A stretch of 63,149 nt of DNA, counting the filler, from Rhabdomonas costata (taxonomy: Eukaryota), in the NCBI GenBank assembly GCA_019059605.1. It is 37 parts of 37 records of this genome, joined end to end, with 100 filler letters (N's around TTAATTAATTAA, not from the genome) between each part and the next. Parts side by side here need not be neighbours in the genome. Positions count along the whole stretch, not along the records: positions 8,560 to 10,170 come from JAHMHO010012043.1; 36 more parts are not named here. One strand, given 5' to 3'. The position numbers and the translations under genes were made by a program. Within the stretch, counting starts at the first letter, position 1. The number at the start of each line of letters is the position of its first letter. The notes under the pieces were generated by a model, which was not told where the DNA came from, made no database searches, and saw only the letters and a list, made by a program, of their open reading frames with translations. Positions 1 through 59,070 of this stretch are shown here, one piece after another.

Positions 1-971
1 GGGGTTTTGTTCAGGAAAAATGTTCGGTGTTCTTTCACTCATTCGGTCCTTCCGATTCCTTTTCAGGTTCCCTATGCCATCCCAGGATCCCAGGATGTGA
101 ACGGGCGGGCATGCCTACCGTCAGGCAGGGAGCGTGCGTTTAGCTCAGGTGGACTTGAAGCCTCGAAGGCTACGTATCCTCCATTGATGGGTTCGCCATT
201 TTGGAAGAAAAAACGCAGTTCCAAAGAACGGATGCGCACCCCTCATCCGTGGGTTCGAAACCTCATGCAGAAAGGTTGGCGAAGCTGCTGTAGTTAACGT
301 CTCTGTCTCAGTCCCAGAAGCTATCCGTCTGCCATGCCCCGCTGACGCCCGGAACTTCAGTATCGGTGCTTTTTTTGTCTCCTTTCAGGCTCCGTGCCCA
401 AGCAGAGCGGCATGAATCCAGAGGGGCTGCCTGATCTTGGTGCTGGAGAAGGTGTGCCTGACGCATCTCTTGCAAAGAACACTTGAAAAAGGTTGATGAC
501 CCAGTCCTTCACGGACTAGGGCCTTTGCTGTGGATTCGTGCGCAAGTGAGCAGAAAAGGGTCACATTCACTTTTTGTGGGCATACCACACTCTCTCGTGC
601 TGGTGACATGGAGCGATGAGCGCTTCTCGGACGATGTGCAAAAAGGCCGTTAAGCATTTTCCACCTTTCTTCCCCTGTCGCCTATTTCGGCGGCGCTGCA
701 AACTGCCGAAGCCAACTGGATCACTGGTCGACCCTATCACCGTTTCTGTCCCCAAACGCTGATCCCTCCCCATACTAAATTGCTGAGCCCTTTACACATC
801 CCAATCCTCCCGAGCAGAGTATCAAGGACATTAAAAACCAAGGGCGCCTTCGAGAGCAAAGGCGGATGTCGCCCCTTGGTCCGCATGCATGTCATTTGCT
901 TCGGCGTGTACTGACGTCACTCGTCGGGAGTTCCTCCGTCAGCCATCCGTCATCCGGAAGCTTTCGTTGCG

Positions 972-1609
972 TTGGCTTTGGCCCAATTGTTTACTCGAAC
1001 TGCGGTGTGGGTCTGCACAGGCCCCCATCCTGCGGAAGCATGGGAGAGCAGGGAGCGCGCCACGGACGTGGACGAGCGTGAGCATGACGGCCTCGCGGAG
1101 TATGCCTGGGATGCCTCCCAGGCGGACGCCAACAAGGCCAACCCCGATGAACCTCCTGAGAACGCGGCCAACAATGATGACGAGGCTGAAGCTGAGCAGG
1201 ACCAGCCAAAGCAGGCCGAGGACCGGGAGCCCGCTCGCCCGGTGGGGCCGCCTCTCCATGGCGGCGGCTCCTTCGGCGGTGCCCACAAAGGGAGGCCTGG
1301 ACTTCACCACACGGGGGAGGTGTTGGGCAAGTTGAACCCTCCCCAGCACCAGGGTTTCCGAGAGAAGAGGGTGGCCGGTGATCTACCTGACCGTCCTGTT
1401 GGTGGCCATCGCATGGAGCCAAGGCACGGCCGGGCCGTGGGCGTATTGGGGTGGCCCGATCGCCACGAGCGCAGGGGGAACGAGGACCAGCACCAGGACT
1501 TCCGGAGGCAGCTGGACGATAACCCTGACACCGACACTGATACAGAGGATACCACGCAGCCCGAGCCAGGGGTCCTGGCTCGCGCTCGCGGGGAGGAGAT
1601 GGAGGACCG
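972..1609 (+). CDS. Acidic low-complexity ORF or exon of unknown function, truncated by the contig end
   Basis: GC-rich open frame of >200 codons rich in D/E/A/P (DEREHDGLAEYAWDASQADANKANPDEPPENAANNDDEAEAEQ). No recognisable domain. Confidence 0.3.
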
Positions 1610-1709
1610 NNNNNNNNNNNNNNNNNNNNNNNNNNNNNNNNNNNNNNNNNNNNTTAATTAATTAANNNNNNNNNNNNNNNNNNNNNNNNNNNNNNNNNNN
1701 NNNNNNNNN
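1610..1709. other. Artificial contig spacer (N-run + TTAATTAATTAA + N-run); first of 36 such spacers
   Basis: The same ~100-nt structure recurs about every 1.71 kb (3321, 5032, 6750, 8460, 10171 ... 61442). TTAATTAATTAA gives stops in all six frames. Contigs are all ~1.6 kb, consistent with size sorting. Confidence 0.99.
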
Positions 1710-3799
1710 TGTGTTGGGTGTCTTGGGTGTTCTCCTGCTCTTTTACAGCCATGTTCCCTGCTGTGTTGCATCTGTGATGGCTACTTCCAATGACTCTTGG
1801 TGTGTTTCGTGATCTTCCTTATGGCCAGTCATTTGGAGTTATGCCATTTATATTTATTGCTTCAGTCAAAACTTCTCTCGGGGACAAGCACTCATTCGGA
1901 TCAACAAAAAAGTGCAAACGAACTTTTTGAGAACATCATGCATAAGATTCGGTACACACCGAGAGAAAAAGGAATGACCGCGTAGTGGCACAGTTGGCAA
2001 AAGGAAAAGGAAGGCATCGAAGACCGCACCCGGACTGAGGTCGGCGCGGAGGAAGGTTGAGGAGACGCTGAGAGTGAGGGCCACCGGTCCACGTCAACAA
2101 CCACTGCTGCAGCTGCTGCAGGGACGGCGGTGGCTTGGCCAGTGGGTGAGGAGACCGTCAGCGTACCCGCAGTGATAGGCTCAGACGTGCATACGCCTCG
2201 CAAAGGAGCCACCAAGCTGGGGGAACGCACCGAGGGAAGAGCGGGATGGGCCTCCGCTTCAGCGACGTGGGAGGGGGTATGGGTGTGAGGAGGATTGGAC
2301 GCAGTGATGGCCAGGGCGCAGCCGCAGTGCGGGCAGCTAAACGGGGAAGGCGATGCACAGGATGGGCTCTGAGAGGTGAACAACGGTGATGGGTTGCAAA
2401 AGGATGCGGTACCATAAGGAATGAAAAAACAACATAAATACCGGCAGTTATCCTTACGTTCACAACAACGGTCACTTTTCGGTGTAAAGTGTGGGAGGTG
2501 ACCTAGAACTTAACTTAGAAACGACTGCATGCATGCCTACTGGAGTGCACCAGGTTGTAGATATTGGAAATACCCCCAAGCAGCACGAGCACTGCGGTTC
2601 CGTCAAGCTCAGCAAGTAGCAAAGTGGAGAATCGATTCAGCTAACACAAAGGGGTACAGCTGAAAACTGGGAATCTTCATTCACAGGCAAAGTAGCGTCG
2701 CTGATCTGGTCCTCCCACTGGTCACCAGATCCTTTTATTCAACGTGGATGGGGGTCCGGACCATTTCTCGCACAACCTCATCCCACGCGCAGAAACATGC
2801 AAACATGTGCACAATAAACACAAATGACATGCCGGATCGGAGGCCTTGGTGGGGCCTACCGGGGCAAGCCTCTCGATGTGCCGGATGAGCTCCTGCTGCT
2901 GCAGCACCAGAGGGAGAATCGTGGCTTGTTGTTGGTAGACGTGGTCCAGGATTTGCCGCAGCAGCTCAGCCAGAACCCGGGACTCCCCAGCGGTGACGGA
3001 AAACAAAGGAGCCTCCATCTTTTCGCGCTCACTCTATTATGCTTCCCTGCTGTCTACGTAGAGGGAATGGAAGGAATCCGGTTCGGGTTGGGGGTGAAAT
3101 GGGCTTAGGCAACGATTAGCAACGACACAAACACGCGGAAATATGTCTAAGAAGATGAAACCTCTGGAGACCACAAAAGGGGGATGTAAATCATCACAGA
3201 TCGCCCCACACATTTTCATTTTTTCAGCTTGCTCCTTATTAAACATATGCAGCACTCGATTTCGGACTGCTTCAAAAAAAGAAAATGTGTGGGGCGATCT
3301 GTGATGATTTACACCCCCCANNNNNNNNNNNNNNNNNNNNNNNNNNNNNNNNNNNNNNNNNNNNTTAATTAATTAANNNNNNNNNNNNNNNNNNNNNNNN
3401 NNNNNNNNNNNNNNNNNNNNGGGTGGGGGGGCAGCCCAGAAAAAAGGGCGAAAAGGGACCGCCAAAAAAAGCGAGCTGAGGCAAAATGCGACCGCTACTG
3501 TTGTTACATTCTAACTACTAATTGGGCCAAGATAGATGCGCTATCGCTCGCCTTCGCAGCCCTCGAGCACCGTTCGTCCGCCAGGCCATCGCGGCCATCA
3601 TCCTGCCATTGTGTTCGGTGCCATGCCTGCTCTAAAATTCACTCTCCTAGGTAAGAAACGTACAAACTCAAACTCCTTGGCAAAGTATGTTTCAGATTGT
3701 GAAGGTTGTACATGCGCACAACCAATGAGGCCCTTTCAGGTTGCAGGTTCCGTTATCCAGCTACGATCGTGCCCGTCGTCCTTTTCCTCACACCAAAAC

Positions 3800-4480
3800 C
3801 TGGTGAATTTAATCAGGTGAGTGCCTTTCCAAATAAGTTCCAGCCGTCGTTTGTGAGGATGGTGAAATAGCACATGATCCCAAACCAACACTTCAACCTG
3901 CTCTGCAATTTTGAGCTCGTCCTGCTCCTTGCCCTTCATAGAACCTCCCAACATTCGGCGCTCGGTGTCGCAGTTCTGAAAGCGCTGACGAGTTAGTTCC
4001 CTAAACAAATGGAAAAACTGACCAAAAAAAAGAACGAAACGACTAATCCCACGCTGCAAACAAGCACAAGTTTAGGGGGGCACACAGGGTTTGGGAAGCC
4101 CAGCAGACCACTTCCGTGTACGAAGGGCTCGGGCAGAAAACTGAGAAAGAGCAGGGTTCACATACAGCCTGGATTGCATGTTCTTCTGGGTCTTTGTCTG
4201 GGCATTCTGACCAAGTACATAGGCCAACGTGAAGACGACCACCAACAGAATCCCTCTAGAAGTTGCAACAGAAAAATCGCAAGTATAAAACGAAGCCAAG
4301 GGCATGGGTTGTTGGTCCAACTTGGGTCTTCTGGTATGAAAGCCCAACAGTTGATGAAATGGATGAAAAAAGGGGATGCCGAATTCTTCTTCAGAAGAGT
4401 AGTACTGGTTGTAGCACCAGCAGCGCTTATGCTGCTGATGTCGTGCCCTACTTGACCACTTTTTGTTAGACTGCCCTATT
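3800..4480 (-). pseudogene. Possible decayed Ty3/gypsy integrase C-terminal region
   Basis: WCYNQY...PFHQLLGFHTRRP resembles the AYN...SPF.L..G..PR.P motif. VWDHVLFHHPHKRRLELIWKGTHLIK resembles the GPY/F module (VGD.VL...KL..KW.GPY). The two pieces lie in different frames. Confidence 0.35.
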
Positions 4481-5304
4481 TCGGCAGCTGCGCCCGATAA
4501 CCCCCTCCCCCCTAATTGCGTTGCATTTATGCTTAACAGAAATGCTTCATTTACGCTAAGCACAAAATTAACGCGAGTGCACAAAGAAAAATGAACAATT
4601 AGTCGACTGCGTGCAAAAAAGCCAATTATTGCCAAGATGTGACAATAAAACGGTGGGAAAAACCAACAGGATGAAAGATTCTACCCGGAAACTTGTGGGA
4701 AGGCGGTCCAGCACTGCAAGGATTTGCTCTAACGGAATGTCGTCAACTAAATCTGACCACTTTCTCACTTAATCATGACGGAAACCTGTTTGTTTCAAAA
4801 AAGTGTTTTTGGCTTCAAGTGATTTCAAAATAAAACCTTTTCACTTAAAACAAAAAAATTAGCTTAAATAGTAGGAATGATGCCTAACCATTCGTTGCAT
4901 TTTATGGAACACATAATGCCAAAGTTTGATTAATAGCCTCATCCGTATTGGTAAATCTTCCAGTTCAATTCCAGTTCAATACATACCCAACAATTTTCAA
5001 GGTCTGCTCTGTTCCTTCTCCACCCAAAAACNNNNNNNNNNNNNNNNNNNNNNNNNNNNNNNNNNNNNNNNNNNNTTAATTAATTAANNNNNNNNNNNNN
5101 NNNNNNNNNNNNNNNNNNNNNNNNNNNNNNNTTTTGGGGTTGTGTGTATGTGTCACTCTCCCTCCCCCCTCCTCCTCCTTTCCTCCCTCCTTCCTTCTCG
5201 CTTTTGGCTGCGGGATCATTCCTTGCGCTCCTTACTTTTTCTGCAGTGCCGCGTGTACTCGCCTTGCCGCCGCTTCGGTGGCAAACACTCTTCCGTTCAG
5301 GGCA

Positions 5305-5330
5305 GTGTGTGTGTGTGTGTGTGTGTGTGG

Positions 5331-5360
<30 letters not shown>
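5305..5360. repeat. (GT)n microsatellite
   Basis: About 28 GT units with one interruption. Confidence 0.97.
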
Positions 5361-5364
<4 letters not shown>

Positions 5365-5454
5365 AAGACCGGTGCTTGTGGGACGGCCGACTAACTTCAC
5401 CAAACAGAGACGCAAAACTTCCAATTCACATTTCAGCCAGGGTTGCACCGACCT

Positions 5455-5660
5455 CAAAGTTCATTGTAGGGGTGCTCAATGTTCAATTCAATTCAATTCA
5501 AGGTCAACAGTTCAAAGTTCAGTTCGAAGTTCAATGTCATGACCGAGCAAAAAACGTCGAAAATTCAAGGTGATCCTTGAAAACTGGGCCAAATTTCAGC
5601 GCAGTTCAAAGTTCAAAGTGACCAGTTCAACGTTATATGTAAGGCAGTTCAAAGTTCAAG
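5455..5660. repeat. Degenerate GTTCAA/TTCAA short-unit repeat region
   Basis: Many copies of gttcaa, ttcaa and gttcaaa (e.g. gttcaattcaattcaattcaaggtcaacagttcaaagttcagttcgaagttcaat). Confidence 0.75.
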
Positions 5661-5993
5661 GCAACCCTTTTCAGGCCTCAGTCATCCGCTAAGGATTCCG
5701 AAACCGAAAGGAGAGACGTTTGGTACCTTTCCCAGTCTTTCCGTCTGCTGCTACGCTCTGCCCGGCCAAATGTCTGCCACACTCCCTCCTTTCCTCCTTG
5801 CACAGTCGAAGTGGTATCTCTTTGCCATAGTGCCCATCCTCCCTACTTCCCCTAATGACTTCGATTCCACCCCTGAGACTTTGCACTTTCTCCTGTGTGT
5901 GTGTGTGTGGCAGGTTGCGACCGACAATCGCCAACCAAGAGTCCACAGGCTTTGGCAGCTGCGACTGAGTGTTTGCGGCTGAGCTCTACCCGG

Positions 5994-6040
5994 CCCTCGG
6001 CGAAATCGAGACCCTCGGCGAAATCGAGGCGAAATCGAGG
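5994..6040. repeat. Short tandem repeat: CCCTCGGCGAAATCGAG twice plus a partial third copy
   Basis: Read directly from the sequence. Confidence 0.85.
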
Positions 6041-6440
6041 TCTTTTCACCGAGGTGGGTCGACACCGCTTTGGGGGACCACGTGGGGGAGCGGATCGAGT
6101 GGTCCAAGCGGGGAAGTCGCAAGAGCCACGTAATTGGTCCAAGCCCACCGTGCCGTCTGACAAGATCCCAATTTCAAGCTGATGATGACTAAAGTGGTTT
6201 TCGCTGGGAATGATGTGTAATAAAAAAACACATTTTTTTTGGCACGCACTCGGAGAATCCAAATTTTCGTCTCCAACCTTTGCACCTACGTATATTGCAT
6301 TGTTTTTCGCCGGAACAATTGGCACCCCGTTTGTGGGGGCATGCCCTGCTGGAGTTACTCCTGATGTTCCCCCCCCTCTCTTTCCCACCAGCATCTATTC
6401 GTTTTGTTGACACGTGTCACTGCCTCTTTTGGGCTCGCCG

Positions 6441-6570
6441 ATGACGGAACCCAACACCGTCTTGCAGCACATCCTCGCTGCTGTGGAGCAGATTAAGGCA
6501 GTCCCTCCAGCAGAGTCACGTCGAGCTTCAGACGCAGTTCTCTGCCTCCAAGCTCGACCTTGAGGCGAAG
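6441..6570 (+). pseudogene. Frameshifted copy of a repeated coiled-coil ORF N-terminus (homologue at 59833-59977)
   Basis: MTEPNTVLQHILAAVEQIK, then a frameshift, then QSLQQSHVELQTQFSASKLDLEAK. This aligns with MTDPTALLQQLLSAVQQIQASQQSLEQSHLALQSQVAESKTDLEAK. Confidence 0.7.
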
Positions 6571-7097
6571 CCTCCCACTCTTCCCGACACCAAATCATCC
6601 GCCGCCCTGGAGCTTCTTCTTGCTCCGATCAGGACCGCCTGTACGCGAAGGTCCTGCAGTTCGCTCAGTCCCTCGTCACTCCCGACGTCGATGGCAGCCT
6701 TCTGCAGTCCGCCTATACCGAGCTTTTGGGCAGGATTGCTGACTCTGCANNNNNNNNNNNNNNNNNNNNNNNNNNNNNNNNNNNNNNNNNNNNTTAATTA
6801 ATTAANNNNNNNNNNNNNNNNNNNNNNNNNNNNNNNNNNNNNNNNNNNNAAGTCATCCCGGAAAAAGCAACATGTCGGAATTTGACGTCTACACACACAA
6901 CTCAATTTTTCGGCGCCTGCCTTTACTCACGAAGAATTCACAGAGCGCGTTTGGAGCTTGGAGAACGTGAAGCTCAAGCAATCCGCAATGGCAAGAAAGC
7001 CTCTCGGGGTGGGCAAGTGGGCAGGAAAGTGCTCGGGAAAAGCAATTTCAACGCCTCCCTCAAGACCCCTCCCCCAGGGGCACGGGGGGGGGGGCAA

Positions 7098-7968
7098 TTA
7101 TTTGTACCGCTCGAACTGCGCGGCCTTCTCGCGCTGCTCCGAGTTGGGGTTGACGACCGGGCGGCACTGCTTCACCAGGGCCATGGCCTGTGCCAGGTTG
7201 AGGTTCTCCCAGGCCATCAGATAGCAGACGGTGACCAGCCAGCTGCGGCCCTTGCCGGCCTTACAGTGCACGTACACCACCTTATCCGCGGAGATCACGG
7301 AGTGCATCCGCGCCGAGACCTCGGCCAGGCGCTCAATGCTGACCTGCGATGCGTATGACGATAGGGAGATAGGGAGATAGGGAGGGAAGGAAGGAACAGA
7401 CGCTTTGATAGGGATATGGAGCCCCACCAGAAACGTCCCACAACCAGATGGGATGGGAGGGGCTTACGCTGTCTTCCGATGGGAACTTGTGCCAGAAGTC
7501 GAGTTAGGGTCTGCTGCAGTCGCAGCGAGACGAAGAGCGGTGATTGCATCATCATATTTTGTGACGGTACATTTCGACCCGGCACGTGTATTTAGTACTT
7601 CCGCATATGCAAGCTGACGCAAGCTCACACGCAGTATTGTGGAGATACTGAAATTGATCAACTCCGGTCAAGGGGGAATTTCAAGCGTCCTGTCAAGCAC
7701 GACTGGGATGTCGCTCCAGCGCGTCCGCTATCGCCTAGTGGACGACAAAGTGAGACAACTGTTTGCACGGTTTGACCCGGAGCTTTGCGCTCTTTTGAGG
7801 TCTTTGGCCCTGCAAAAGGACGGGCGCACGGACCTTCGCGCTGAAGTCCGGCATGCTGACGACCTCGAACTCGGTGACCCCGAGCTGTTCCCTCCAGTCC
7901 TGCTGCTGCGCGAACTGAAGCAGGGTCACCCCGAAGCCCTCAAACTCGTCCGGTTGCACACAAGAGAC
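7098..7968 (-). CDS. Dual-specificity / PTPMT1-like phosphatase, last two exons
   Basis: Exons 7968-7834 (VSCVQPDE...MPDFSAK) and 7343-7098 (to TAA) are joined by a phase-0 GT-AG intron. Catalytic loop VYVHCKAGKGRS, upstream general-acid PDF, and C-terminal ALVKQCRPVVNPNSEQ. Confidence 0.88.
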
Positions 7969-8559
7969 CTGTGGAGGGTGCGGAGGGTGCGGTGGGTTCA
8001 TGTTCGACGCAAGCGGGGAGAGGGAGGGGGGGTTCCTCTGTCAGGTAACCACAAAATGAAAACGCTAAGGCTAAAAGTGTCGGGGCTGACTCATCTCCAG
8101 GTAGCGCCATTTCGAGTATCCCTCGTACGCTTCTTAAACTGAAGGCTCTGATTGGATGGAGGGGAGTGGTTGCAGCAAAGAGATGTCAAATCCATAAATC
8201 CATGAGGAAGAAAGAAGGGAAGAAGGTAACACCAACAATTCGGAGCAGGCACAGCAATACAAATCGAAGGAAAAGATGAAAAAGGGATGGATGCGCGATG
8301 ATGCCCATTTCGGAGGCTCTCTTGAACCGGGATCCTGCTCTTCATTTAACTTCCCTGCATTCCCCTTTTTGTCCTTCGTTGCAATGACGCACAAACACAG
8401 TTATGCAAACAAAATCGTCCCGCAAGGCTCAAATTGTGGCGACGTCACCCCCACCCCCCNNNNNNNNNNNNNNNNNNNNNNNNNNNNNNNNNNNNNNNNN
8501 NNNTTAATTAATTAANNNNNNNNNNNNNNNNNNNNNNNNNNNNNNNNNNNNNNNNNNNN

Positions 8560-9073
8560 TTTTGTGGGGGGTGTTTTGTGTAGTATTGGATTTTCTACAA
8601 ATCCATGGAATAATGCAATTTCATCATCATTAACACATATAAAGAAGGTAAATGGTGGAGGAAATATTAATGTAATAGGAGAAAGTACAAATACATATAT
8701 TGGTGTTATTCCATATTCACAAAAAACAATATTAAAAGTTCCAGTTGTTCCATCTGGTAATGATAAATTATTATATTTGATTTATTTTGATTTATTAGCT
8801 GGAGCATCCGACAATTTTGGATGTACAAATATTCTTATAAATAACGTACCAATTGAACGTTTTAGAATAACATACAATAATCCGTTTAAAATACATTATA
8901 AAAAACGTTATTCAATATATTTTGCAGCAAAAATACCAAAAGAACTTATACCTCAAGATGCTAAATTCCTAGATGTAACAGTAGATACATCAAATCAATC
9001 AGCCGGTTTTATATACAATGATAATCGTAATGGAATAGCATTTACAGACATAGGAACACATGATTTTATTTAA
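8560..9073 (+). CDS. Hypothetical protein, 5'-truncated, giant-virus-like
   Basis: Intronless ~170-codon ORF with A/T-ending codons, rich in I/N/K, on a contig far more AT-rich than the others. It ends at TAA and is followed by a hairpin. Confidence 0.75.
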
Positions 9074-9109
9074 TTTAAAAATAATCTTACATGAAAATTA
9101 TTTTTAAAT
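9073..9109 (+). terminator. AT-rich stem-loop directly after a stop codon (candidate Mimiviridae-type 3'-end/polyadenylation hairpin)
   Basis: ATTTAAAAATAAT (9073-9085) is the exact reverse complement of ATTATTTTTAAAT (9097-9109): 13-bp stem, 11-nt loop. Confidence 0.6.
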
Positions 9110-9159
9110 ATAATTAATTATTTTATAAAATCAAATCTTCTTAATAAAATATATACTGT

Positions 9160-10170
9160 ATGGAACAAAATACAATTATATTGATTAGTTTAATTATAAT
9201 AGTTATTTATCTTTTATATACACAAAATAATAAGTCTGTAAATGATGAAAAATTCAAAACAAAAGCAGCAGCAAAAGCTGCACCAAAAACAACACCAAAA
9301 ACAGCAACAAAAGCAACACCAAAAGTAGCAACAAAAAATACAAAACAAATAAATTCAACATCACAGGAATCAACAAAATCTCCATCAAAATCTCCATCAA
9401 CAAAAGCAAAACAAGAAACAACAAAATCTCCATCATCAGCTGCGAAAACAGGAACAACCAAAAATAAATCAGGATCAACACAAGTTGATAGAAGAAGATC
9501 AGGTGTTAGTCAAATTATGGGTACATCTAGTAAAATAGCAACATCAACTGAAGAAGAATATTTCCCAGTTGAAGAAGAACATATTTCTTCTATTCTTCAA
9601 GAAGAAGAAGAACATTTATTTGGTTCAAGAATACTACCACAAATTATAAAATCTGCAGAAAAAGAACATGTATTTGATACAAAATCTATACCAGTTGAAG
9701 AAGAACATGTATTTGATGCAAAATCTTTACCAGAAAAAGAAAAAAATATATGTAAATTTAGAATCATCGAAAATTAAAAATATGCAAAATAATATCATTA
9801 ATAAATTAAAAAAAAACAGTTGATGATTCATTTAAAGATACAGAAGATATTCATAATGAATTATTAAAGACCAACATTAAAGATATACAAAAAATTATTC
9901 TTGGTTCAACAAAAGATGATAAAGATAATAAAAATATATGTATATTAAGTCGAGATAATAATGATGTATTAACTTTAAAAGGAAATACACTTGATTTACA
10001 TACAAATAATATGTGTCATAATGATAAGTGCTTTTCGGGTGATGAATTAAATAATAAATGGAATACTATACAAAATTATACTGTAAATAATCTAAATTGG
10101 ATTAAATTATTAAGTGATGTTAATATTACACCTAAAATTATAAATTATTTGAAAGATATGCAAAACCCCC
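9160..10170 (+). CDS. N-terminally membrane-anchored low-complexity protein, giant-virus-like, with two apparent +1 frameshifts; 3'-truncated
   Basis: MEQNTIILISLIIIVIYLLY (TM) then ...EKF, a K/T/A/S-rich tract and EEEH repeats including a 39-bp tandem unit. Coding-like sequence continues in the next frame (KIYVNLESSKIKNMQNNIINKLKK) and then in the third frame (TVDDSFKD...MCHNDKC...) to the contig end. Confidence 0.7.
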
Positions 10171-12436
10171 NNNNNNNNNNNNNNNNNNNNNNNNNNNNNN
10201 NNNNNNNNNNNNNNTTAATTAATTAANNNNNNNNNNNNNNNNNNNNNNNNNNNNNNNNNNNNNNNNNNNNGTTGTTGGGTGTACAAGCAGCGGTACGGCG
10301 GGGCGTCGGCCTCGTAGCGGTAGTCGGGGTTGTCCTGGCACAAGTGGCACGGCAGGTAGTCCGGCACTGAAGCCCACCCCAAGACAAGACGTGAAAAATG
10401 GGGGGCAGCCAAGAAAAAAGAGTGCACAGTATGACTTCTTGAAACAACTGCCTGAAGAGGAAAACTTACATACCTTACGCTCAATTCCTCAAATTGGGCC
10501 AATGGGCAGAGTGAGCCCACAGTATACAGGGAAGAGGGAAGGCAATTGACGCAAACGGATGGCCTGATGGCAACCTGTCCCATTTTCCAGCAAAAAGCAG
10601 CAAGTACTACATGCAGCCATTCGGCCTAAGAGTCGCTGAGAAGCCCACCGGAACCCATTTCGAACGCCGCAGTTTTCTTCCGCTTTTTTCGCGGCCACGA
10701 CCGTGATTGATTCGTGTGTCGTGGCACCCACATAACCGTCTACGACACATCAGCCACACATATCGCGGACCCTAACAGCTTTCATCAAGCAACCCACTCA
10801 CACCAGCTTTCCATGCATTTTTAATTTGAACACAACACCTACCTCTTACTTCCGGTGCCTAGTTCTCGAATAGCATCGCATTCGAAGGATGCAGTTCACA
10901 CTTTCGTCTGTGCTGCGCGCAGAAATTTTCTCTTTACTACTGAGCAAGGGCTTTCCGCAAAGGTTCACCTCACTTCGCCTTGCTTCTCCGTTGTCCAACT
11001 CTTTTCCCGTGCTCTCCACAATGCTTCTTGACCCTCACTTGCTGAACCGCGATACTGACGCCCAGGCACTGGAGCCAGACACCTCGGCCACCACTACCAC
11101 TCACGAGGTTTGCTTTTGGTGAAGGTGCTGGCAAACCCTAACAAGGCCCATTCATTCATTCAGACACACATTCCACACCTTCTCCAAGGGAGCATTCTCT
11201 CAGGAATTTCGACGCTTGGCCCCAGCGCCATGGTGTCCTTGGAGGAAGGCTGCAGCGGCTTAAGGGTGACGGCGGTCCCGCCCTCCGAGGCCTCAGTTGT
11301 CCCCACGGCTGCTGGCAATGAAGACGGCAATACCCAGGACTCCGCCGAGCTCGCCCCAGAACAGTCGATGGAGATAGTGTCCAGGTTGTACCTGGGACTC
11401 TCAGAAAAATACTTCTTCTGCATCATTGAAGAACTTCGAGAGGAACAGGATGAGCCCAGCTGGGTCACAACCTCGTCATCGTCATCGTTGGTCATGCCGG
11501 CCTGTGAGGAAACCATGGGCCCCGTGCACCTTCTGTCATCCACAAGCACAAGGAAAAAAACAGTGAATCCCCTCTGAGGCCTTTAACTTGGACTCACAGC
11601 AAGCCTTCCGCTGGTTTCTCAGCGGCACAGTTGAACACTACGAGCACATAGAGAGTGCCACGACAAATCCAAGGCTGGCAACAGGATCGAGGCCATTTGG
11701 CAAACGAATCCGTTGCGGTTGTTGCTGTTGCCGTTGCATGGTGGAAATTATGCACGGTGTGTGTGTTCGTGCGTGTATGTGCGCGTCGGGAAACCCGAGC
11801 CGAGGCCGCTGTAGAAAAACGAAAAACGTACAAACGCCGTCTTACATAACAGCTGAGGACAAAACGTCGTCCTCATAACTTNNNNNNNNNNNNNNNNNNN
11901 NNNNNNNNNNNNNNNNNNNNNNNNNTTAATTAATTAANNNNNNNNNNNNNNNNNNNNNNNNNNNNNNNNNNNNNNNNNNNNCGTGTTCACGTGCCTTTTC
12001 TTCGAGCACAGCCGAGCTGAGGGATATTTTAGGAAGTAATGTTCAGTTATGGGACATTGAGTACTACTTTGAGGATATCCCACCATGTGCCACCATGTGC
12101 GGGTTCCCACAACTGGGAAGTGCTGCTTTGGTGTTAGCATTTTATTCTTTGGCTTAGGGAGAGCTGTGTCTGTTTGTTCGTGTTAGGATTTTCTTTGACT
12201 ATTTCACCGAATGCCTTTTATTTTGATGTGCTGTTCCGCATGCGAATCACTTGTGCTTTCTTTTCGCGAAGCGCTGAACTTTCAGTACATGCTTGTGGAT
12301 TCATATTCCCCCCACCCCGGAAGATCATCTTTGGGTGAAAGAAAGTCTCTTTCCTACTTTTTATCCCAGGGACTGCGCAGCCATTTCTCTCCTTTATCTG
12401 CTGTGCTTGAGTCTCACGCTTCGGACTTTTCCACCA

Positions 12437-13550
12437 ATGAAGTTTACCCGCAGGCAATCTGCAAAGAAGACGCTGCAGTGGTACGCCCGGCGTGGGCAGC
12501 CCCTCCTGGAGCCCCCTGTGCGGGTTCTGGTGGACCCTGGAGTGCTGGTGCATGTCATCCGCACTGGGCTCAGCTATGAAGGCTTGCTGCAGGCTTTGCG
12601 CACGGCGCTGGGGGTGCTGCGTGGTGGGGGCGGGGCCCAATCCGGACATTACAAGAGCAATGGGAGCAACAGCAACAACCCTTCTGCAGGTGCCGGGGTG
12701 CGGCTGTGCAGCTGCCAGCCCATCCGCGATGAGCTGGTGCGAGGCAAGCACTTCGAGGCCCTGCAAATGGCCAAGAAGGTACGCTTTCTGTTGGTTTGTT
12801 CTTCACCCGCTTTGGAAGCAATAGCCGAGGTTGATCCAGACCTGAGAAGGAAATGTTAATTGGATAAGACAGTTCTCTGTCTACCCCCCCCCCCTTCAGT
12901 CACCACCGGGTTATGCACAGGTTGTGGGAGAGTGGGGTACGTTACATGTCGGCCCCTCCAAGGAAAATGCCCCCAAAAAAGGCTCGAAATGGTCCCTTCC
13001 CCCAACGCAATGGTTCCCTTCCACTCCTTATCTTCTCTGATCCCGCCAGGTGTGGGGTCCAGGTTCTCCGGTCAGGTTCCGGCTCCGTTCTTTCTGCAGA
13101 GGAGCCCCATGTCGGCAACCACCCTTTGAATGGGGTGATATTTGAGCCGAAATAAGGGGTGCATCCGGCCGCCGAATCCGATTTCCGATTCGGTTGACCC
13201 AAACTACTGACTACCACCTGTTCGTTACCCACCTCAATGTGAATCAGAGCTCATTTTGGCCAGCCCCTCATTTTCCCCACCCCTCCCTGCTTTTTCCTTA
13301 GATGTTTAGTGTGCGGCTGGACGATTTGGAGTTGGGCGGCGGCAAGGGAGGGGTGAGCTCTCTTGAGACCCTTCAGGCTCTGGTCGCTCAAGGCAACCCA
13401 CGGGGCTACGTTGTGGCTACCGCAGAGAAGGCTGTGCGACGGGCGATGCACCGTGCGGTGGTGCCCGTGCTGTGGCTCTCGCCCACCCGGGGGGTGTTCG
13501 GGCTGGACCCGCCCCCCTCGGCCGGGGAAGAGGCCCCCAAGCAAAAGCAG
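12437..13550 (+). CDS. UTP23: rRNA-processing PIN-like protein (Fcf1/UTP23 family), first two exons
   Basis: Exon 12437-12778 starts MKFTRRQSAKKTLQWY...EPPVRVLVD, like UTP23 MKITRQKHAKK...EPYQILLD. Exon 13302-13550 has LVAQGNPRGYVVATAE...VPVLWL...LDPP. Phase-0 GT-AG intron. Confidence 0.75.
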
Positions 13551-13929
13551 GTCGGGTGATCAGAAAGGGAGGGTGTTCGCGCAGGATAAGGGNNNNNNNN
13601 NNNNNNNNNNNNNNNNNNNNNNNNNNNNNNNNNNNNTTAATTAATTAANNNNNNNNNNNNNNNNNNNNNNNNNNNNNNNNNNNNNNNNNNNNAAAGTTAA
13701 GGTCAAGCCTAACTCATCGATCTATGTCTCTTTGACTTGGAACTTTCTTGCTTTCTCGTGGCCGCTGGGATTTGGATCTCGATTCTGTTCTGATGCAAGC
13801 TGTCGCATGGGTCCATTTTCGTAGACCCTCTCTCTTTACGGTACGGCATTTCCACAATTGCGGCCCAGGGACGCACGTACCCAGGACACAAGTGGGTCTT
13901 TTTTTAATGAACGTCGTGCGGCTGCGCAG

Positions 13930-15268
13930 GATGCCGCGGACATGGAGACCTTGCGCAACGTGTTGAAGATGAACCCTCTCTTTACTCAGCTTGAGCCTGA
14001 AGACTTGCAGGTGAACCCCTCACCACCGCACAAAGCCGGGCTTGGCGGTCCGTTCTTCATGCTGCCCAATACTTTGCTTTCGCGACGTTTGCAAAGGATC
14101 ACCTTCGCTGAACGCAAACCCCAGCTACCATGGAGAAGTACTGGTTTTACTGACGGAATGGGACGGACGGCTTTGTTGTGGGCGAAAGGGTCAAATGATA
14201 TGCATTTATTGTCCGGGTGATGGATTCCAAAAATATTGCCCCTGCCACCTCAAAAGTGAGAGGTGGAAAACGCGTTACCCAAATGTTACATTCTGGACTT
14301 ACGGGGAGAGGGATTAGGGACAGCAAAAAAGCCTCTCTTTGTAAATCATGTCAGTGCAGTTGTTTCGTATGTATTGAAATCTGTTAAATTCCGGAACTTT
14401 TTCTGAGGTATGCCGATGTTTTCCAGATGTGCAGGTGATCTAAGCTGTGATTTCTTGTTTCTCACATACGACGTGGCCGGGGTCATATACATTGGGGCCA
14501 CTGAGAAATTGTCCCGATGGACCCATCTCCCTGTCATGTGGTGTCGATATGGCGTGGTAATTGCTCAAGGCTGCCGCGTATGTGTGCAGGTGGTGCTGGA
14601 AGCGATGCAGCCCGTGACCCACCCCGCGTCCTCGGTAGTGTTGACTCAGGGCGGAGAGAACGACCGGTTCACCGTGATCGGGGGCGGGGGCGTGGAGATC
14701 GTGAGGGATGGAGCAGTGATCTGCCCACTAAAGGCCGGCCAAGGGTACGCCCTGACGCCCCCACGGAGCGCTGTGTACGACCCTTTTCTCTTCCAGAGCG
14801 CATATGGGCCAGAATTGGGTGCAATATAAATTTCGCCGTGCATTCGTCGAAATTTTTATAAAACGTGCATTTTTCTGTTTTCGTACATTTCTTCTCAACG
14901 TAGGACTTTTTCTTCTCAATGTAGGACTTCTCCTTGCAGACGAAGAAGGTCACTGGCAAACCTTTGTGGTATTCCTGGAATGACGTTGCTGGACAAGCGC
15001 AATGCGTTCCCCGGGGTGCAGTCGTCGCAATGCGAACTTTAAATAGAACGTATCTGCTGTTCAAAAAAATTTCGATGTGCTGACATACGCCCTGCATGGT
15101 TTAGACCGTGACTCCAGCGGTGCCTCTACCGCCTTGTTCCACTGCATTCCCGTTGACAGAGGCCTCCGCTCTGTCCCTCGCTCCATTGTTTGCTTCGCTG
15201 CCGTTCAGCTTTGGGGAGCTGGAGCTGATGTACAACACCCCGTGCGCAGCCACTGTGCGCGTGCTGCC
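13930..15268 (+). CDS. PKA regulatory subunit-like cyclic-nucleotide-binding domain (CNB-A), three exons, atypical phosphate-binding cassette
   Basis: Exons 13930-14010, 14590-14744 and 15209-~15268 with phase-consistent GT-AG introns. Spliced product: LKMNPLFTQLEPEDLQVVLEAM...VLTQGGENDRFTVIGGGGVEIVRDG...GQGFGELELMYNTPCAATVRV. Confidence 0.88.
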
Positions 15269-16539
15269 CGGGGTGTTGTACATCAGCTCCAGCTCCCCAA
15301 AANNNNNNNNNNNNNNNNNNNNNNNNNNNNNNNNNNNNNNNNNNNNTTAATTAATTAANNNNNNNNNNNNNNNNNNNNNNNNNNNNNNNNNNNNNNNNNN
15401 NNGGGGGTGGTTGTGAAAGTGGACAACAGGGCAACGAAAACAACGGCAAATTTCAGGGAATCCAATCAGTCCTCAGTTTCCCGTTCGTTTCGTTGCCCTG
15501 TTGTCCACTTTCACAATCACTTACCTCAAATGTCGAATGTACAAAGGCAGGGACTTCTGCAAAAAAAAAGTAGAAGTCGCACGGAGTCGGACGGAGGAGC
15601 GGTGAGCGGATGACCTTTAATTCTAATCCTCACAGGGACATTCAGACCGGAGCTCTGCAGATACACAATTTCCGTGGCCAGCTCCGACCCAAAGCCAAGG
15701 TACTCCCGCTTGGAAGCCAGCACAAGGCTGGGATCCACCCGAAAATGAGCCATCACCCTCCCACCTCTCTCTCACTCTCAGAGCGACTGCACTTCTCAAT
15801 CGAATGCGAGCGAACACAAGCCACTGGGTGAAGCAACGCACACGCACAACAAACCTACAGTGAAAAGGACCAAGCTCTGGCTGTCTCACAGAGCCCGTCG
15901 TTTGAGTGATGCTGGATGAGTCTATGATCAATTTATAATCGTGACAGAAAAGGCTTGTGCCCAGGAAGCCGGCCGGGTTGGTCGGTATTTGGTGCTGATG
16001 AAGGCACATAGCAAAGTAAAATCAAGGACAACAGTCGCAACAGTCGTCAAACTTCGGATGCCATGAGGGTGCCATGACAGGAAGTTATGAAGTCTGTAAA
16101 GAAATGCCACACGCATAGTGATATCCTACAAGCAATGCAAGGATAGGCACCCTGAGCCGCCGCCAGTCCACATCAGCCCAAGCAGTCCAAATAGTGCAAA
16201 AACGGAACCGCCGACAAACAAGGGGGAGCAGTAAGACAATCAGAATACCACATAAAATGAAAGCCTCAGAATGTGGGACTTCTCGGCAGTTCGCATTAAT
16301 AAAGTTAACTTAACAAAGCTGAAAATTTATTCTGTTACCCAAGGTAAGATCTAGACAGGGAATAACAGCACATCAAACCAGAAGAAGTCATGGCTCCGAA
16401 AGCAAAAGCAATTATTTTACACCACACTTGCCTAACAAACCAACCATCACCGTCACCACCAGCAGCCTGCAATTTCCCACCACAGGAAAAAGAAGCTATG
16501 GAGGCTTCCCAATGAAGGCAGCTGGACTACAGACTTCTC

Positions 16540-25281: not shown

Positions 25282-26559
25282 CTCAATTGAACGACTCCAC
25301 TGTCTTCTTGCGTGACTTCCTCCAAGCAAGATTGATTGGGCACCTTTCCTCCGATGAGCGGGCGCCTCAAGTCCGCCAGCGGATATGGAGCGCAACGTCC
25401 ACTTCTCAGTAAAGGAACTGTTGCTAGGAGAAGGTCATCGAAAAGGTCACAAACACCGATGTGATTTGATAAACCAGCTGCTGAGAGCAGCGTATCCGTG
25501 CCAGTCCGAGTTCTGCAGGGATGACAGACATGCTCACAGGCCCCAGTCCCACCCCCACACNNNNNNNNNNNNNNNNNNNNNNNNNNNNNNNNNNNNNNNN
25601 NNNNTTAATTAATTAANNNNNNNNNNNNNNNNNNNNNNNNNNNNNNNNNNNNNNNNNNNNTTCAACCATTTATCATCCGACGCTTTCCTTAGCACCAGCT
25701 GAAAAGAATGAGGCGAAAAGGGAAGCAACCGCTGTGCTTGAAAGAGAATGGCAGGTGTCTATATCCGTGGCCATATTTCTTCTCATGGATCAATTGAACA
25801 GATGATTAAAGGTACCTGTAGAAGGGCATATTGTGCTCATATGCCACAACGTTTGCCCTCTTTGTAAGGCATTTGCAATCTCATGCTCACAACCGTGCAG
25901 TTTTATGGCATTTTTCCTGTGTTGAGTCAATTGCGTGACATTTTTCATCATTCAATACTATTGGCCATTCAGCTTTGGCCTCCAAAACTGTGTCATCAAG
26001 GCCTTTTCTGAAATGTAATCCAAATATCTTCCCCATGTGTAATAATAAAAAAATAAAAAATGACGTGAGATAAAAGAACATTTTGAATCATTTACATAAC
26101 AATTTGCCTCAGTGTGCACTTTTATTGGACCTGAATGGCTCTAGGCGTCACCAAAGGTCACGGCGAAATTACCCAAGAAGGTTTTCTTGGCAGGCGCCAT
26201 TCGCCTTCAGGTCAAAGTGTTTCAATATGTACAGAAGCTGATAACACCGGTGCCTGGAATGCAGCAGCAAATACAAATGGGTAGATATCATTTCACAAAA
26301 GGACCTGAAATAACCAATGCATAAGCCATAGCGGCCGTTTACAGCGCAACCACGCCACTCACAGATCTTCTGCATAATGTCTGTCAAGTGGGAATCTCTT
26401 GACATGTGTGAAGTTTTTGGGCAGTTTCAAGTGTGCGATAGCAAGGATATTTTCGGTATGTTGTTTGATTCAAGATACCGAAATCTACCTATGATTTAAC
26501 AGCATTAATTGACCTCAATCTGCACCCATGTGCACGTGCCACGTGCAGCTCAAAAAATC

Positions 26560-26770
26560 TCCCATCAAATATCTTTTCACACACATGACATAATGCTGCC
26601 AATTTTCCTCCAGAGTTTTGGCGTATACCAACATGTCGTCAGTGTAATCTCCTGCAAGATTACAACTGAGATTACAGGTCAATATTAGAGAAGTTGAATA
26701 AATATCTTGAACTTGATCCAACATCTCGTCAATGCGTTGTAGTGGTTACATGTTGATGTGTCTGTATTTC
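26560..26770 (-). pseudogene. Decayed Ty3/gypsy reverse transcriptase remnant
   Basis: PLQRIDEMLDQV (consensus YPLPRIDELLD.L) and YTDDMLVYAKTLEENWQH (consensus YLDDILIYS.T.EEH..H), with the intervening RT motifs deleted. Confidence 0.65.
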
Positions 26771-27723
26771 ACTGCCATCTCAGATTCCAGTTGTGGTTTG
26801 GAACAAAAATGATCACTGAGTCATACTTCCTTGATGTACATATGGTCCAGCAATCCTCTCAGCTTAAGCTGTAACTCGGCATCTCTTCTATGTACATCCG
26901 CTGAGCTTGGATGCGTAAAATCTTTGTACCACTTGTGTGTACTTGGAGCTGTATCAACTGAAGTGGCCGCTTGATTAAGGTTATTTATCGTCTCCTGAAC
27001 GTCTTTGAGCGCAGACAGCTTCTTACGCTTCCACATATTCATTTGTAATCAGCTGCTAGCAGCGCATGTATGTAATGATATGAAGGTACTACATACTCCA
27101 GACAATAGAGACATGCGGCAAAGTGACTCCTCCCTTGGGCTTGTTTTGGGTGTTCTAAAACACCAGAAGCGGCATGTCTCCAATTCCAGAGGATAAAAAA
27201 CCAACTTCATCTGGCACACACCATGGGAAAATTATTGCGAATCACACCCAATAAAAGTCTTACATGCAACNNNNNNNNNNNNNNNNNNNNNNNNNNNNNN
27301 NNNNNNNNNNNNNNTTAATTAATTAANNNNNNNNNNNNNNNNNNNNNNNNNNNNNNNNNNNNNNNNNNNNGGTGTGGGGTGTGGGTACGACAAGAGCGTC
27401 GGGTGGTTGTTGGTTGGTAAGGGTGCTTTTTTTTTTGCGATCTTTATTTTGAGTTTCCGAGGGGTGCGTGAGCCGGTTGTAATGTTATTGGTTGGTTTTG
27501 GAGCCAGCTGTTGTGCGTATAAGGTGTAAGCGATGCGTCAATGCTCCTAAGAATGAAAAGTGTCTTCCTTCCTTTCTGGGGGGCGTTTTCTCAGTGAGGA
27601 AATGGCTCATTACCACCAAGATGAGACCTGTATACCCCGTCATTTTAACCCGCTCGTGGTCCCATGTTCTTCTCCACCCACCCACCTACTTACCGACCAA
27701 TGTGGCGCCTTTCTCGTGAATAG

Positions 27724-54504: not shown

Positions 54505-54793
54505 CTGTCGCACATAAATCCGTCCCCACACTGGAACCTTGAATGCCACGTCACAGGGGCGATTACTCTCTTAGGCGGAATTTTCAAGTTACCCGATGCT
54601 TGTTTNNNNNNNNNNNNNNNNNNNNNNNNNNNNNNNNNNNNNNNNNNNNTTAATTAATTAANNNNNNNNNNNNNNNNNNNNNNNNNNNNNNNNNNNNNNN
54701 NNNNNATTTTGTAGCTGGTGGTGATGCAATTTTCGTAATCCTCTTGAACACTTCTCTTTTGCGATCGCCGCTAAACTGTTGGGGGGAACTCAC

Positions 54794-56270
54794 TAACACA
54801 CCTCCAGGCCCGTTGTAGATCTTGTTGGACTGCACCACGGGGCACCCCGAGGACTCCACCAGGAACCCTGGGCCGTGGTTCGCGAAGATCTCGTTGTGGT
54901 GGAAGCACCCTCCGCCCTTCGAGGACACCGCCACTCCGGCCCCTTGGTTGGCGCGGACACGGTTCCGGGAGAAGACCGGGGCGCTGCCCGTGCCCAGCAC
55001 GGCCACCCCAGCCTGGCCCTGCTTCGCGATGTCATTGCCCTCGAACTCGCCACCCCCACCCTCCGAGACTTTTACCCCAAAACCGTGGTTGGAGTGAATC
55101 TGGTTTTCTGAGCGAGTACGAGAGACGGAATCCCGAGAGGGGAGAGGGAATCCACTAGAGATCACCGCAACAGTGAGCCAAATGAGTTGTTTGCCTGAAA
55201 TAAGGAGTCGACCAATGCTGCCACAAGAGCTCGACAATGAGTACGCATCGGTTAAACAAATCGTGTGGTGAGTTGCGGAAGTCCGATTGTAATCTACCCT
55301 CTCTCTATATCTGATCTCACATTGCGAATCAGATCTTCGGCTCTTCACTTCTCGACACCTCAATATGCCAAAGTCAGCCTTTAAAAAATTGCCATTGCAG
55401 TGATAACTTGAAATCCATGAACAAAAGACATAGCTTCGCAAATGAAGCTCCGCTGGGCATCCATTGATGCACATATCCTCTCAAAATGTAAAGCAAAATA
55501 AATGAAAACGGGATGAGGGGAGCGGGTGCACACCGGTGAACTTCCCGGAGCCCGCCTTGACCCACAAGCCGTTGCCCTTGCCACCCTTGATGGTGTTGCT
55601 GTCCACCACGGGCGCCCCAAGACGCTCCACCAGCACCCCGCTACTGGCATTCTCAGTAATCGTGTTGTGCTGCAGCAGTGGAGCTGCTCTGAGAACCCGA
55701 ACACACACAGTGTGTGTTTCTAAGAGGGGACCGAGGAATAAAGATCTGGGGTGTGGCGTCTGATGAGGAAATCATCCCCACTTGTCGGCTTCCGCGCTGA
55801 ACGCTCATGCGACAGCGTTCCCGTTCGCTTGGCTGTATCTTTGCACTTTCACAAACACATGGAAAAACACGAGAGCACTGTAGGATGGATGATAACGACT
55901 TTGCGTCTTGTACAACGTCTTTTGATTACCGAAAGGCATCAAGGCGTCAGTGCCCCGCACACACTGATTCAACACCACACAAATTTGAATCGGCGAATGA
56001 AAAAGTCGCAGGGACGGCAACGAATGGCAGTCCCCACTGTTAGCACAAAGAAGGAGGAGACGGAGCGGACACGGCCCACGATTTGGCTTTTTGCATACCC
56101 GTCGGCGACGACCACCCCCTCAGCGAGAGAAGAGTGGACGATGTTGTTGCTCAGGATGGGAGCAGCCCGAGAGGTCACCTTGACGTTGCATACCCCATGG
56201 GCGAAAATCTGGTTGTGAGTGAAGGCTCCCTTGGCACGGTCCGTGATCAGCAGCCCTGAGAGCCCATTAT
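54794..56270 (-). CDS. Right-handed parallel beta-helix (CASH/NosD, FBXO11-like) repeat protein, three exons
   Basis: Exons ~56270-56099, 55688-55534 and 55107-54794 are phase-consistent with GT-AG introns. Repeating N.I..N...GV.V......P units. Confidence 0.88.
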
Positions 56271-58199: not shown

Positions 58200-59070
58200 T
58201 GCAATCACCTTTGCGGTCTGGGCTATGGGAACGCACGCCAGAGGCACAGTTGGGTCGCTCAGACGTTTGAGACATGGGACGCGTTTGTAGCTTACTTGAA
58301 GACCATGTTGGGAAACTTTTGAGTACAACATTTTGTGGAGATTGGATAAGCTGAGAGTTGACGGAAACTTTCAGTTTTTCGTGTCTCAGTTCACACTGGG
58401 AGCCAAGCTACTGAGAGGTTGTCCTTTTGTTCATGACTTACACTTGAGGTACCTTTTTACTTTGACCAGCCACCCGCTCGAATTCAATCACATGGTTCAG
58501 AGAGTGCGGGGGTGGTCAGTGCAAGCGAGTGGCCTGAGTGGGATGTCGGTTGACGGGGGTTGGGACGCCATGACGTCAGGAACATTGCTGGGGGCGATGG
58601 CGTCGCCTCCCAGAGGGGTGCTGTTTGTGGAACGTGGAGAGGCGCAAGCCAACGCAGTTAGGACCCCGTCACCTAGACCCCCACCCACAACGACCAGAGT
58701 GTACCACAGGGGGGGAAGCTTTTGGAGTAAAGGTAGAGGAGGATTTCCAAGAACCGTTTCACCGGTTAGAGACAGACCAAGAGTAGTGGGTACACCTGTG
58801 GTGGGACAGAGGTCTATCTCGCCGAGATCACCGGCGACAACAAATACACTTAGGTTGGAAGGTAGAAGCCCTTTTGCACAATCAATATTGGACGACGCGG
58901 TGCAACGTGGGGCGCTGAGGTGTTTTTACTGCGGGTCACCAGGCCATTTCATGAAGTATTGCCCGGAATTCAGGTCGAGAGCGTGGCATTCCGCACCAAC
59001 GACATTGTCAGGAAGTACACAGTTTCAGGAATGTGGAACTGTCCCTGTCAAGAAGGAAAACTCAAACTGA
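58200..59070 (+). mobile_element. LTR retrotransposon gag with CCHC zinc knuckle, degenerate
   Basis: TFETWDAFVAYLKTMLG, frameshift, LWRLDKLRVDGNFQFFVSQF...LRYLF (retrotransposon gag pattern), an R/S/P-rich linker, then CFYCGSPGHFMKYC (CX2CX4HX4C) at 58921-58962. Confidence 0.75.

Follow-up and report, generated by a model that had tools for sequence, protein, structure and literature searches.

An AT-rich contig from the Rhabdomonas costata genome assembly GCA_019059605.1, located at positions 8560-10170 of the analyzed window, is probably derived from a giant virus. The window, which is the whole stretch of DNA that was analyzed, is 63,149 nt long and consists of 37 contigs of 1595-1618 nt each, with 36 artificial linkers (N-run/TTAATTAATTAA/N-run) at the joints. 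The feature under study is exactly one of these contigs, 1611 nt in length, with an artificial linker on either side. Its assignment to a giant virus is based upon the protein family to which its genes belong, the way they are laid out, the base composition, and the lack of bacterial signals for translation, and not upon hallmark genes. The guanine-plus-cytosine (GC) content of the contig was 25.0%, versus a mean of 51.9% for the remaining 36 contigs (standard deviation 3.3, range 41.6-58.7; z = -8.1). A previous sequence-only reading had placed these values at 20-25% and about 50% by eye, in agreement with the measurement.

The contig is intronless and 92.6% coding when three open reading frames (ORFs) are counted, hereafter called ORF1, ORF2, and ORF3. 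All three are co-oriented. The first two, separated by 86 nt, had been recognized in the sequence-only reading, and the third, at 9810-10170, had been missed. That reading had also described a gene start with no obvious Shine-Dalgarno sequence and a protein beginning with a hydrophobic anchor, EKF, and low-complexity repeats, and both descriptions were upheld. No Shine-Dalgarno-like motif (GGAG, GAGG, AGGAG, or AAGGA) was present in the 25 nt 5' of the ORF2 ATG, the one clean gene start on the contig. The tandem repeats in ORF2 are formed by units of 12 nt (6.4 copies, 9260-9336), 36 nt (2.1 copies, 9386-9463), and 39 nt (1.9 copies, 9658-9733). With standard stop codons and dense, intronless, AT-rich genes set apart by a short spacer, the contig is organized in the style of the nucleocytoplasmic large DNA viruses (NCLDV).

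Relatives of ORF1 were identified by an exhaustive HMMER search of 1.84 billion representative proteins, which returned 174 matches at E<=1e-3, including 100 at E<=1e-10. Among the 150 listed relatives, nearly all match at the C-terminal end of proteins of 400-1100 amino acids. The closest relative, P0004, is a protein of 496 amino acids with 48% identity (E 1.5e-30). Insofar as this is the best ORF1 relative anywhere, the contig does not come from a virus with proteins in the searched collections. The aligned part of ORF1 spans residues 6-170, with family homology beginning only at residue 6-8, and the family motifs FSTNPWN, DKLLY, NPF, and IP and the terminal GTHDFI-stop (G-T-H-D-x-x in the family) are all kept; ORF1 also conforms to the invariant columns of family alignment A1. 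Because the ORF1 stop falls at the conserved C-terminus of the family, TAA is a true stop here, and a ciliate code in which TAA is read as a residue was ruled out for this gene. An origin from organelle or kinetoplast DNA was ruled out on the grounds that each of the three frames either is a member of a non-organellar family or shows its layout. No family for ORF1 or ORF3 was found in Pfam, PHROGs, or NCBIfam. The Pfam matches of ORF2 were all compositional and stayed under threshold, as with DUF5850 at 16.2 bits (cut-off 25), and DUF5850 was found neither in the 279 kb virus record described below nor in controls. Searches of PDB sequences returned nothing at E<0.2, and scans of IMG/VR with single proteins (ORF1 and ORF3) and with an alignment of P0125 and ORF3 returned no relative.

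The family is built of an N-terminal membrane anchor, an E-x-F/L/M motif, an optional K/T/P/A-rich linker, a helical C-x4-C stalk, and an all-beta C-terminal module of about 300 amino acids. An N-terminal anchor was observed in 57 of 138 full-length-like members. In 48 of these 57 it is followed within 25 residues by E-x-[FLMYI], a loose definition that, on a rough estimate, about one third would satisfy by chance; EH[LMFYI] alone accounts for 19. The sequence-only reading had regarded an anchor followed by EKF as common among NCLDV proteins, which is borne out here for this family only. The features of the family are distributed over the contig, with the C-terminal motifs in ORF1, the anchor and EKF in ORF2, and the C-x4-C stalk in ORF3, although ORF2 and ORF3 are in different frames. 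An AlphaFold2 model of P0004, generated from 87 aligned sequences, had a mean predicted local distance difference test (pLDDT) score of 83.8. It contains an N-terminal helix (residues 2-25), further helices of lower confidence up to about residue 185, and an all-beta region from about residue 190 to 496 with pLDDT block means mostly of 95-98. ORF1 corresponds to residues 340-496 of this model. Some family members are built differently. Eight (P0049, P0054, P0059, P0073, P0088, P0095, P0110, and P0122) have a signal-peptide-like N-terminus and a Cys-containing coiled region instead of the anchor and E-x-F, and many family matches are G/A/R/P-rich with fibre-like N-termini.

ORF2 and ORF3 were placed by comparison with another member of the family, P0125 (653 amino acids). 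ORF3 matches residues 208-313 of this protein, just upstream of the conserved module, with 33% identity (E 1e-20 as a single comparison; 2.2e-17 with phmmer). This direct match supersedes an hhalign comparison of ORF3 with family alignment A1, which gave a probability of 0.5%. P0125 starts with its membrane anchor, which is followed by EHLT and an extended K/P/A/T repeat, a layout like that of ORF2, and P0077, like ORF2, has both an anchor and EKF. A tblastn comparison of P0125 with the contig yielded three collinear pieces, in which residues 5-148 map to ORF2, residues 192-313 to ORF3, and residues 466-619 to ORF1 as a paralog. The match to ORF2 is of low complexity, with E 8e-9 obtained without composition correction. 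Since ORF1 is the C-terminus of a family member and ORF2 and ORF3 map to the front of P0125, the contig is read as the end of one paralog (A) and, beyond a spacer, the beginning of a second (B). No longer relatives of ORF3 were found in a word-index search, and a search with the P0125 stalk returned only P0125 and one protein 94% identical to it. As assembled, paralog B spans three frames, namely ORF2, a short ATG frame at 9782-9823, and ORF3, and the frame changes coincide with an A7 run at 9740-9746 and an A9 run at 9808-9816. A short frame at 9650-9820 showed no significant match to P0125. Paralog B may be a single gene in which homopolymers are misread, a pair of genes, or a pseudogene.

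Members of the family were found in giant-virus genomes. Scans of IMG/VR with family alignments matched three records. Two of these, of 279,551 and 203,861 bp and 23-29% GC (loci L001 and L002), contain co-oriented tandem pairs whose N-termini carry an anchor and E-H-L/F, with neighbouring genes for a TFIIS-type factor, an RNase III-like protein, a poly(A) polymerase-like protein, and helicases. Four open frames of the 279 kb record together give five matches to NCLDV capsid proteins, and the record also contains VLTF3 (E 9e-37). A metagenome scan yielded 21 family loci, all of 20.6-39.3% GC, in which ORFs of at least 100 amino acids cover 0.63-1.17 of the locus; at loci of at least 10 kb with relatives the coverage is 0.93-1.02 of the length. 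Locus L016 encodes a mimivirus-type poly(A) polymerase with both domains (1.2e-47 and 3.8e-46), a TFIIS ribbon, and an SNF2 helicase, and L023 contains RFC and XPG genes. Two to three co-oriented copies were present in nine of the 20 loci with C-domain matches, separated by spacers of 21-92 nt (one of 944), compared with 86 nt in the window, and adjacent C-domains within these arrays are 39-54% identical. Shine-Dalgarno-like motifs were observed for none of 45 ORFs in NCLDV-context loci, two of 64 in other low-GC loci, and eight of 14 in the phage locus described below. The family thus has members in verified NCLDV genomes, as seen in the 279 kb record and the poly(A) polymerase loci, and is not exclusive to them. 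All membrane-anchored members with a readable neighbourhood were on densely coding contigs of 21-39% GC that lack Shine-Dalgarno signals.

The mimivirus-like metagenomic genomes (L001 and L002, with the syntenic L015, L016, L019, and L025) resemble the contig in their GC content of 22-27%, their co-oriented tandem family copies with a membrane anchor and E-H-L/F, their short spacers, and their lack of Shine-Dalgarno-like motifs. They differ in that their copies share only about 27% identity with the nearest full-length ORF1 relative and fall in a separate clade. Genes for capsid, VLTF3, mimivirus-type poly(A) polymerase, and TFIIS are present in these genomes and absent from the window contig. 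Two other metagenome loci have distinctive neighbourhoods. L028 (24.1% GC) contains four tandem anchored genes at 380-8120 and 9720-16350, in which the family match is to the front of the module only. These adjoin genes for aspartate-semialdehyde dehydrogenase, dihydrodipicolinate synthase, an aminotransferase, and an aminotransferase-DapB fusion, a lysine/diaminopimelate pathway block on a virus-like, Shine-Dalgarno-poor contig. In L012 (39% GC) the family member adjoins a second anchored protein, a family-11 glycosyltransferase, and a collagen-repeat protein (E 1.6e-48); the locus also gives a T4 gp36-like match, which is weak and lies under its cut-off.

Phylogenetic trees of the C-terminal domain were calculated from 164 rows and 160 columns, with log-likelihoods of -39736 for a quick tree and -39574 for a careful one. 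The quick tree placed ORF1 with P0004 and P0077 inside a 16-row clade with a Shimodaira-Hasegawa-like approximate likelihood ratio (SH-aLRT) value of 96. In the careful tree ORF1 was joined by P0077 (91/86) and then P0004 (89/85), and these three belong to an 18-row clade (83/87) in which most proteins are anchored and of AT-rich composition; the 16-row clade, starred in the quick tree, was not starred again. The trees support anchored proteins as the nearest relatives of ORF1, and nothing deeper.

A number of results weigh against a giant-virus origin. No NCLDV hallmark gene was detected with Pfam in the three ORFs, 1.6 kb being too short to expect one, and there is no second low-GC contig among the 37 in the window. 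The 279 kb record, with an estimated completeness of 24%, gave no A32 match. The context survey covered family members with readable neighbourhoods, and the proteins nearest to the contig (P0004, P0077, P0125, and P0157), which come from metagenome contigs, of 73 kb for P0125 and 47 kb for P0157, are not among them. Members with a verified NCLDV context form a separate clade of 30-36 rows, far from ORF1, in both trees, and the bootstrap of the careful tree had not settled. An approximately unbiased (AU) test did not reject a tree in which ORF1 was held with a 52-row, mostly G/A/R/P-rich clade (p 0.96), but it is uninformative, because the constrained search reached a better tree than the poorly optimized quick free search. 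The C-terminal module is not virus-specific and also occurs in many G/A/R/P-rich proteins that resemble tail fibres. The third IMG/VR record, of 226,657 bp, is a tailed jumbo phage with a large terminase and no NCLDV capsid. Finally, a scan of 185,579 prokaryotic species, one genome per species, for the anchored-type family motif found one locus, on a Microcoleus contig (L030) of 41-45% GC; this version of the motif misses many bacterial forms. The giant-virus origin proposed in the sequence-only reading is the best supported, given the presence of the family in dense, low-GC loci of NCLDV context, and it is qualified by the lack of a hallmark gene on the contig and by the domain in a jumbo phage and a cyanobacterium.

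These last findings bear on whether the contig could instead come from an AT-rich tailed phage or bacterium, present as prey, symbiont, or contaminant, with ORF1 as the tip of a tail fibre, an origin that is considered unlikely. In the jumbo phage the family C-terminal module ends an anchor-less protein of 748 amino acids (L029, 8804-11050), the middle of which matches a PHROG tail-fibre family, and it fits the alignment model more closely (E 1.2e-88) than do the giant-virus copies (1.2e-55 and 6.2e-46). The Microcoleus member is the second of two fibre-like genes with a common N-terminus, downstream of large ORFs like those of a phage tail cluster that had no NCBIfam match. The N-terminal parts of both the phage and the Microcoleus proteins match PHROG tail-fibre families. 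A feature-based atlas listed only Uroviricota clusters for ORF1, with a score of 0.80 that, like the 0.75 of P0004, is in the noise range, and placement of ORF1 with the mostly G/A/R/P-rich clade was not rejected by the AU test. Against this, the next paralog on the contig starts in ORF2 with a membrane anchor and EKF rather than with a fibre or baseplate-attachment N-terminus, and neither ORF2 nor ORF3 has a PHROG or Pfam tail match or the N-terminus of a phage or injection-system fibre. ORF2 lacks the Shine-Dalgarno-like motif seen at more than half of the ORFs in the phage locus, an anchor and an AT-rich composition are common to its nearest relatives P0077, P0004, and P0125, and the prokaryote scan, with a motif that misses many bacterial forms, found a single locus, of 41-45% GC.

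Nuclear DNA of an AT-rich eukaryote, from prey or a contaminant and encoding this anchored-fibre family, is still less probable as the source. Members with a cleavable-looking signal peptide in place of the anchor (for example P0049, P0054, and P0088) could come from a eukaryote, or from another group of viruses. The close gene spacing and lack of introns on the contig argue otherwise, as does the dense coding of all relatives' loci of at least 10 kb, and the TAA at the conserved C-terminus excludes, for ORF1, the ciliate code mentioned above. Least probable of all is endogenised giant-virus DNA that is decaying to pseudogenes in the nucleus of the sequenced cell's own genome, because, although paralog B cannot be read in one frame and ORF3 has no in-frame ATG before 10011, both frame changes occur at homopolymers that are typical sites of amplification or sequencing error, GC content is still 25% without drift toward the host, ORF1 and ORF2 are intact, and no host-GC sequence is attached at either end.

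Under the favored giant-virus origin, the source would be a large, AT-rich, double-stranded DNA virus of eukaryotes, most likely a mimivirus-like member of the Nucleocytoviricota, a fragment of which would have been co-amplified with DNA of a eukaryotic cell of about 52% GC. The contig would be part of a tandem array, with the last ~165 codons of paralog A, then the 86-nt spacer, and then ~330 codons from the start of paralog B, contained in ORF2 and ORF3. The viral family proteins may act as membrane-anchored fibres whose distal module binds a ligand on the cell surface, and tandem copies as divergent as those described above could give the virus diversified binding specificities. Because the module forms the distal end of phage and injection-system fibres, we infer a receptor- or ligand-binding tip on a membrane-anchored stalk. 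The argument for binding is from context only, which is a further point against this interpretation. A broader proposal is offered with considerable doubt, namely that the family is a host-recognition kit of mimivirus-like viruses, in which trimeric anchored fibres carry a beta module exchanged with the fibres of phages and contractile injection systems, fast-diverging tandem arrays set the host range, and the contig represents an undescribed lineage (no more than 48% identical to anything known) inside or attached to the sequenced protist cell. The contig and the cell are tied only by their co-occurrence in one file.

Parallels for these features are found in known systems. The genome of Bodo saltans virus (Klosneuvirinae) is reported to have 25.3% GC, compared with about 50% in its kinetoplastid host (PMC5871332), a contrast like that between the contig and the rest of the window; the resemblance is in composition only, and the contig has no marker gene that would assign it to the Klosneuvirinae. 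Tailed phages and contractile injection systems, whether extracellular or thylakoid-anchored, have tail fibres that share the C-terminal module with the family at the distal end (L029 and L030), and that, unlike it, start with fibre or baseplate-attachment sequence without a membrane anchor. In a catalogue of injection-system fibre domains, 37 are given as novel (PMC12923769). Prasinovirus genomes are described as containing a hypervariable, fast-evolving block of adhesion and recognition genes that includes phage tail-fibre homologues (PMC12906663). These are likewise large DNA viruses of eukaryotes with fast-evolving recognition genes. They belong to a different virus family with a GC content of about 41% or more, the genes are not described as anchored tandem paralogs, and the likeness is one of description only.

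Protist assemblies made from single cells or at low coverage are known to contain fragments of giant viruses that hint at virus-host pairs. The contig itself is ordinary in this respect, and one 1.6 kb piece cannot establish a virus-host link. The more useful by-product is the gene family, which comprises at least 174 clusters at 50% identity without a Pfam, NCBIfam, or PHROG model, and whose C-terminal module is common to phage and injection-system tail fibres and to anchored tandem proteins of mimivirus-like viruses. If the module does bind receptors, it would provide a concrete handle on host recognition by mimivirus-like viruses and a marker for finding fragments of such viruses in eukaryote assemblies.

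Table 1. Features of the contig at positions 8560-10170 of the window.
Feature	Position	Strand	Remark
Stand-alone contig, 25.0% GC, 1611 nt	8560..10170	.	N/TTAATTAATTAA linkers on both flanks
G/T-only 5' end TTTTGTGGGGGGTG, probably derived from amplification primer	8560..8573	+	Primer origin probable
ORF1 (P0001), 170 amino acids, 5'-open, C-terminal domain of paralog A	8561..9073	+	Ends GTHDFI-TAA like its relatives
AT-rich spacer between paralogs, 86 nt, without Shine-Dalgarno-like motif	9074..9159	+	
ORF2 (P0002), 205 amino acids: anchor, EKF, K/T/P/A-rich and S-rich repeats, then acidic EEEH-x-F repeats	9160..9777	+	
ORF2 membrane anchor, residues 5-20	9172..9219	+	Hydrophobic stretch
ORF2 EKF, residues 30-32	9247..9255	+	
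Tandem repeats of 12/24/36 nt encoding K-x-x-x units	9258..9337	+	
39-nt repeat, 1.9 copies, encoding E-K/E-E-H-V-F-D-x-K-S-x-P	9658..9733	+	
A7 homopolymer close to the end of ORF2, possible frame-change site	9740..9746	+	Putative role
Short frame MQNNIINKLKKNS*, beginning 4 nt past the ORF2 stop, in a frame different from ORF2 and ORF3	9782..9823	+	
A9 homopolymer; short ATG frame and ORF3 frame offset by one base across the run	9808..9816	+	
ORF3 (P0003), 120 amino acids, 3'-open, stalk of paralog B with C-x4-C	9810..10170	+	First in-frame ATG at 10011
C/A-only 3' end AAAACCCCC, probably primer derived	10162..10170	+	Primer origin probable

The termini of the contig, TTTTGTGGGGGGTG at the 5' end and AAAACCCCC at the 3' end, are of a kind seen elsewhere in the window. 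G/T-rich 5' ends were counted in 13 of the 37 contigs and C/A-rich 3' ends in eight of the 37 (at least 13 of 15 bases). Such ends are probably remnants of whole-genome-amplification primers and are therefore not to be taken as biology.

The remainder of the window looks like the genome of a gene-poor eukaryote, with 15 frames of at least 200 amino acids in 63 kb. Neither Rfam matches nor tRNA genes were found in the whole window. The contig with the second-lowest GC content is at 25661-27270 (41.6%). The contig at 51302-52909 consists entirely of one open frame of 536 amino acids on the minus strand with a polyketide-synthase KR domain (E 3.3e-63). This frame is open at both ends and, because it overruns both contig ends, represents a piece of a large modular synthase in a genome of about 52% GC. 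A right-handed beta-helix frame (E 5.7e-16) is located at 54707-55480 on the minus strand. In the frame at 58300-59067 on the plus strand, a CCHC zinc knuckle (E 9.6e-5) suggests the remnant of a retroelement gag gene.

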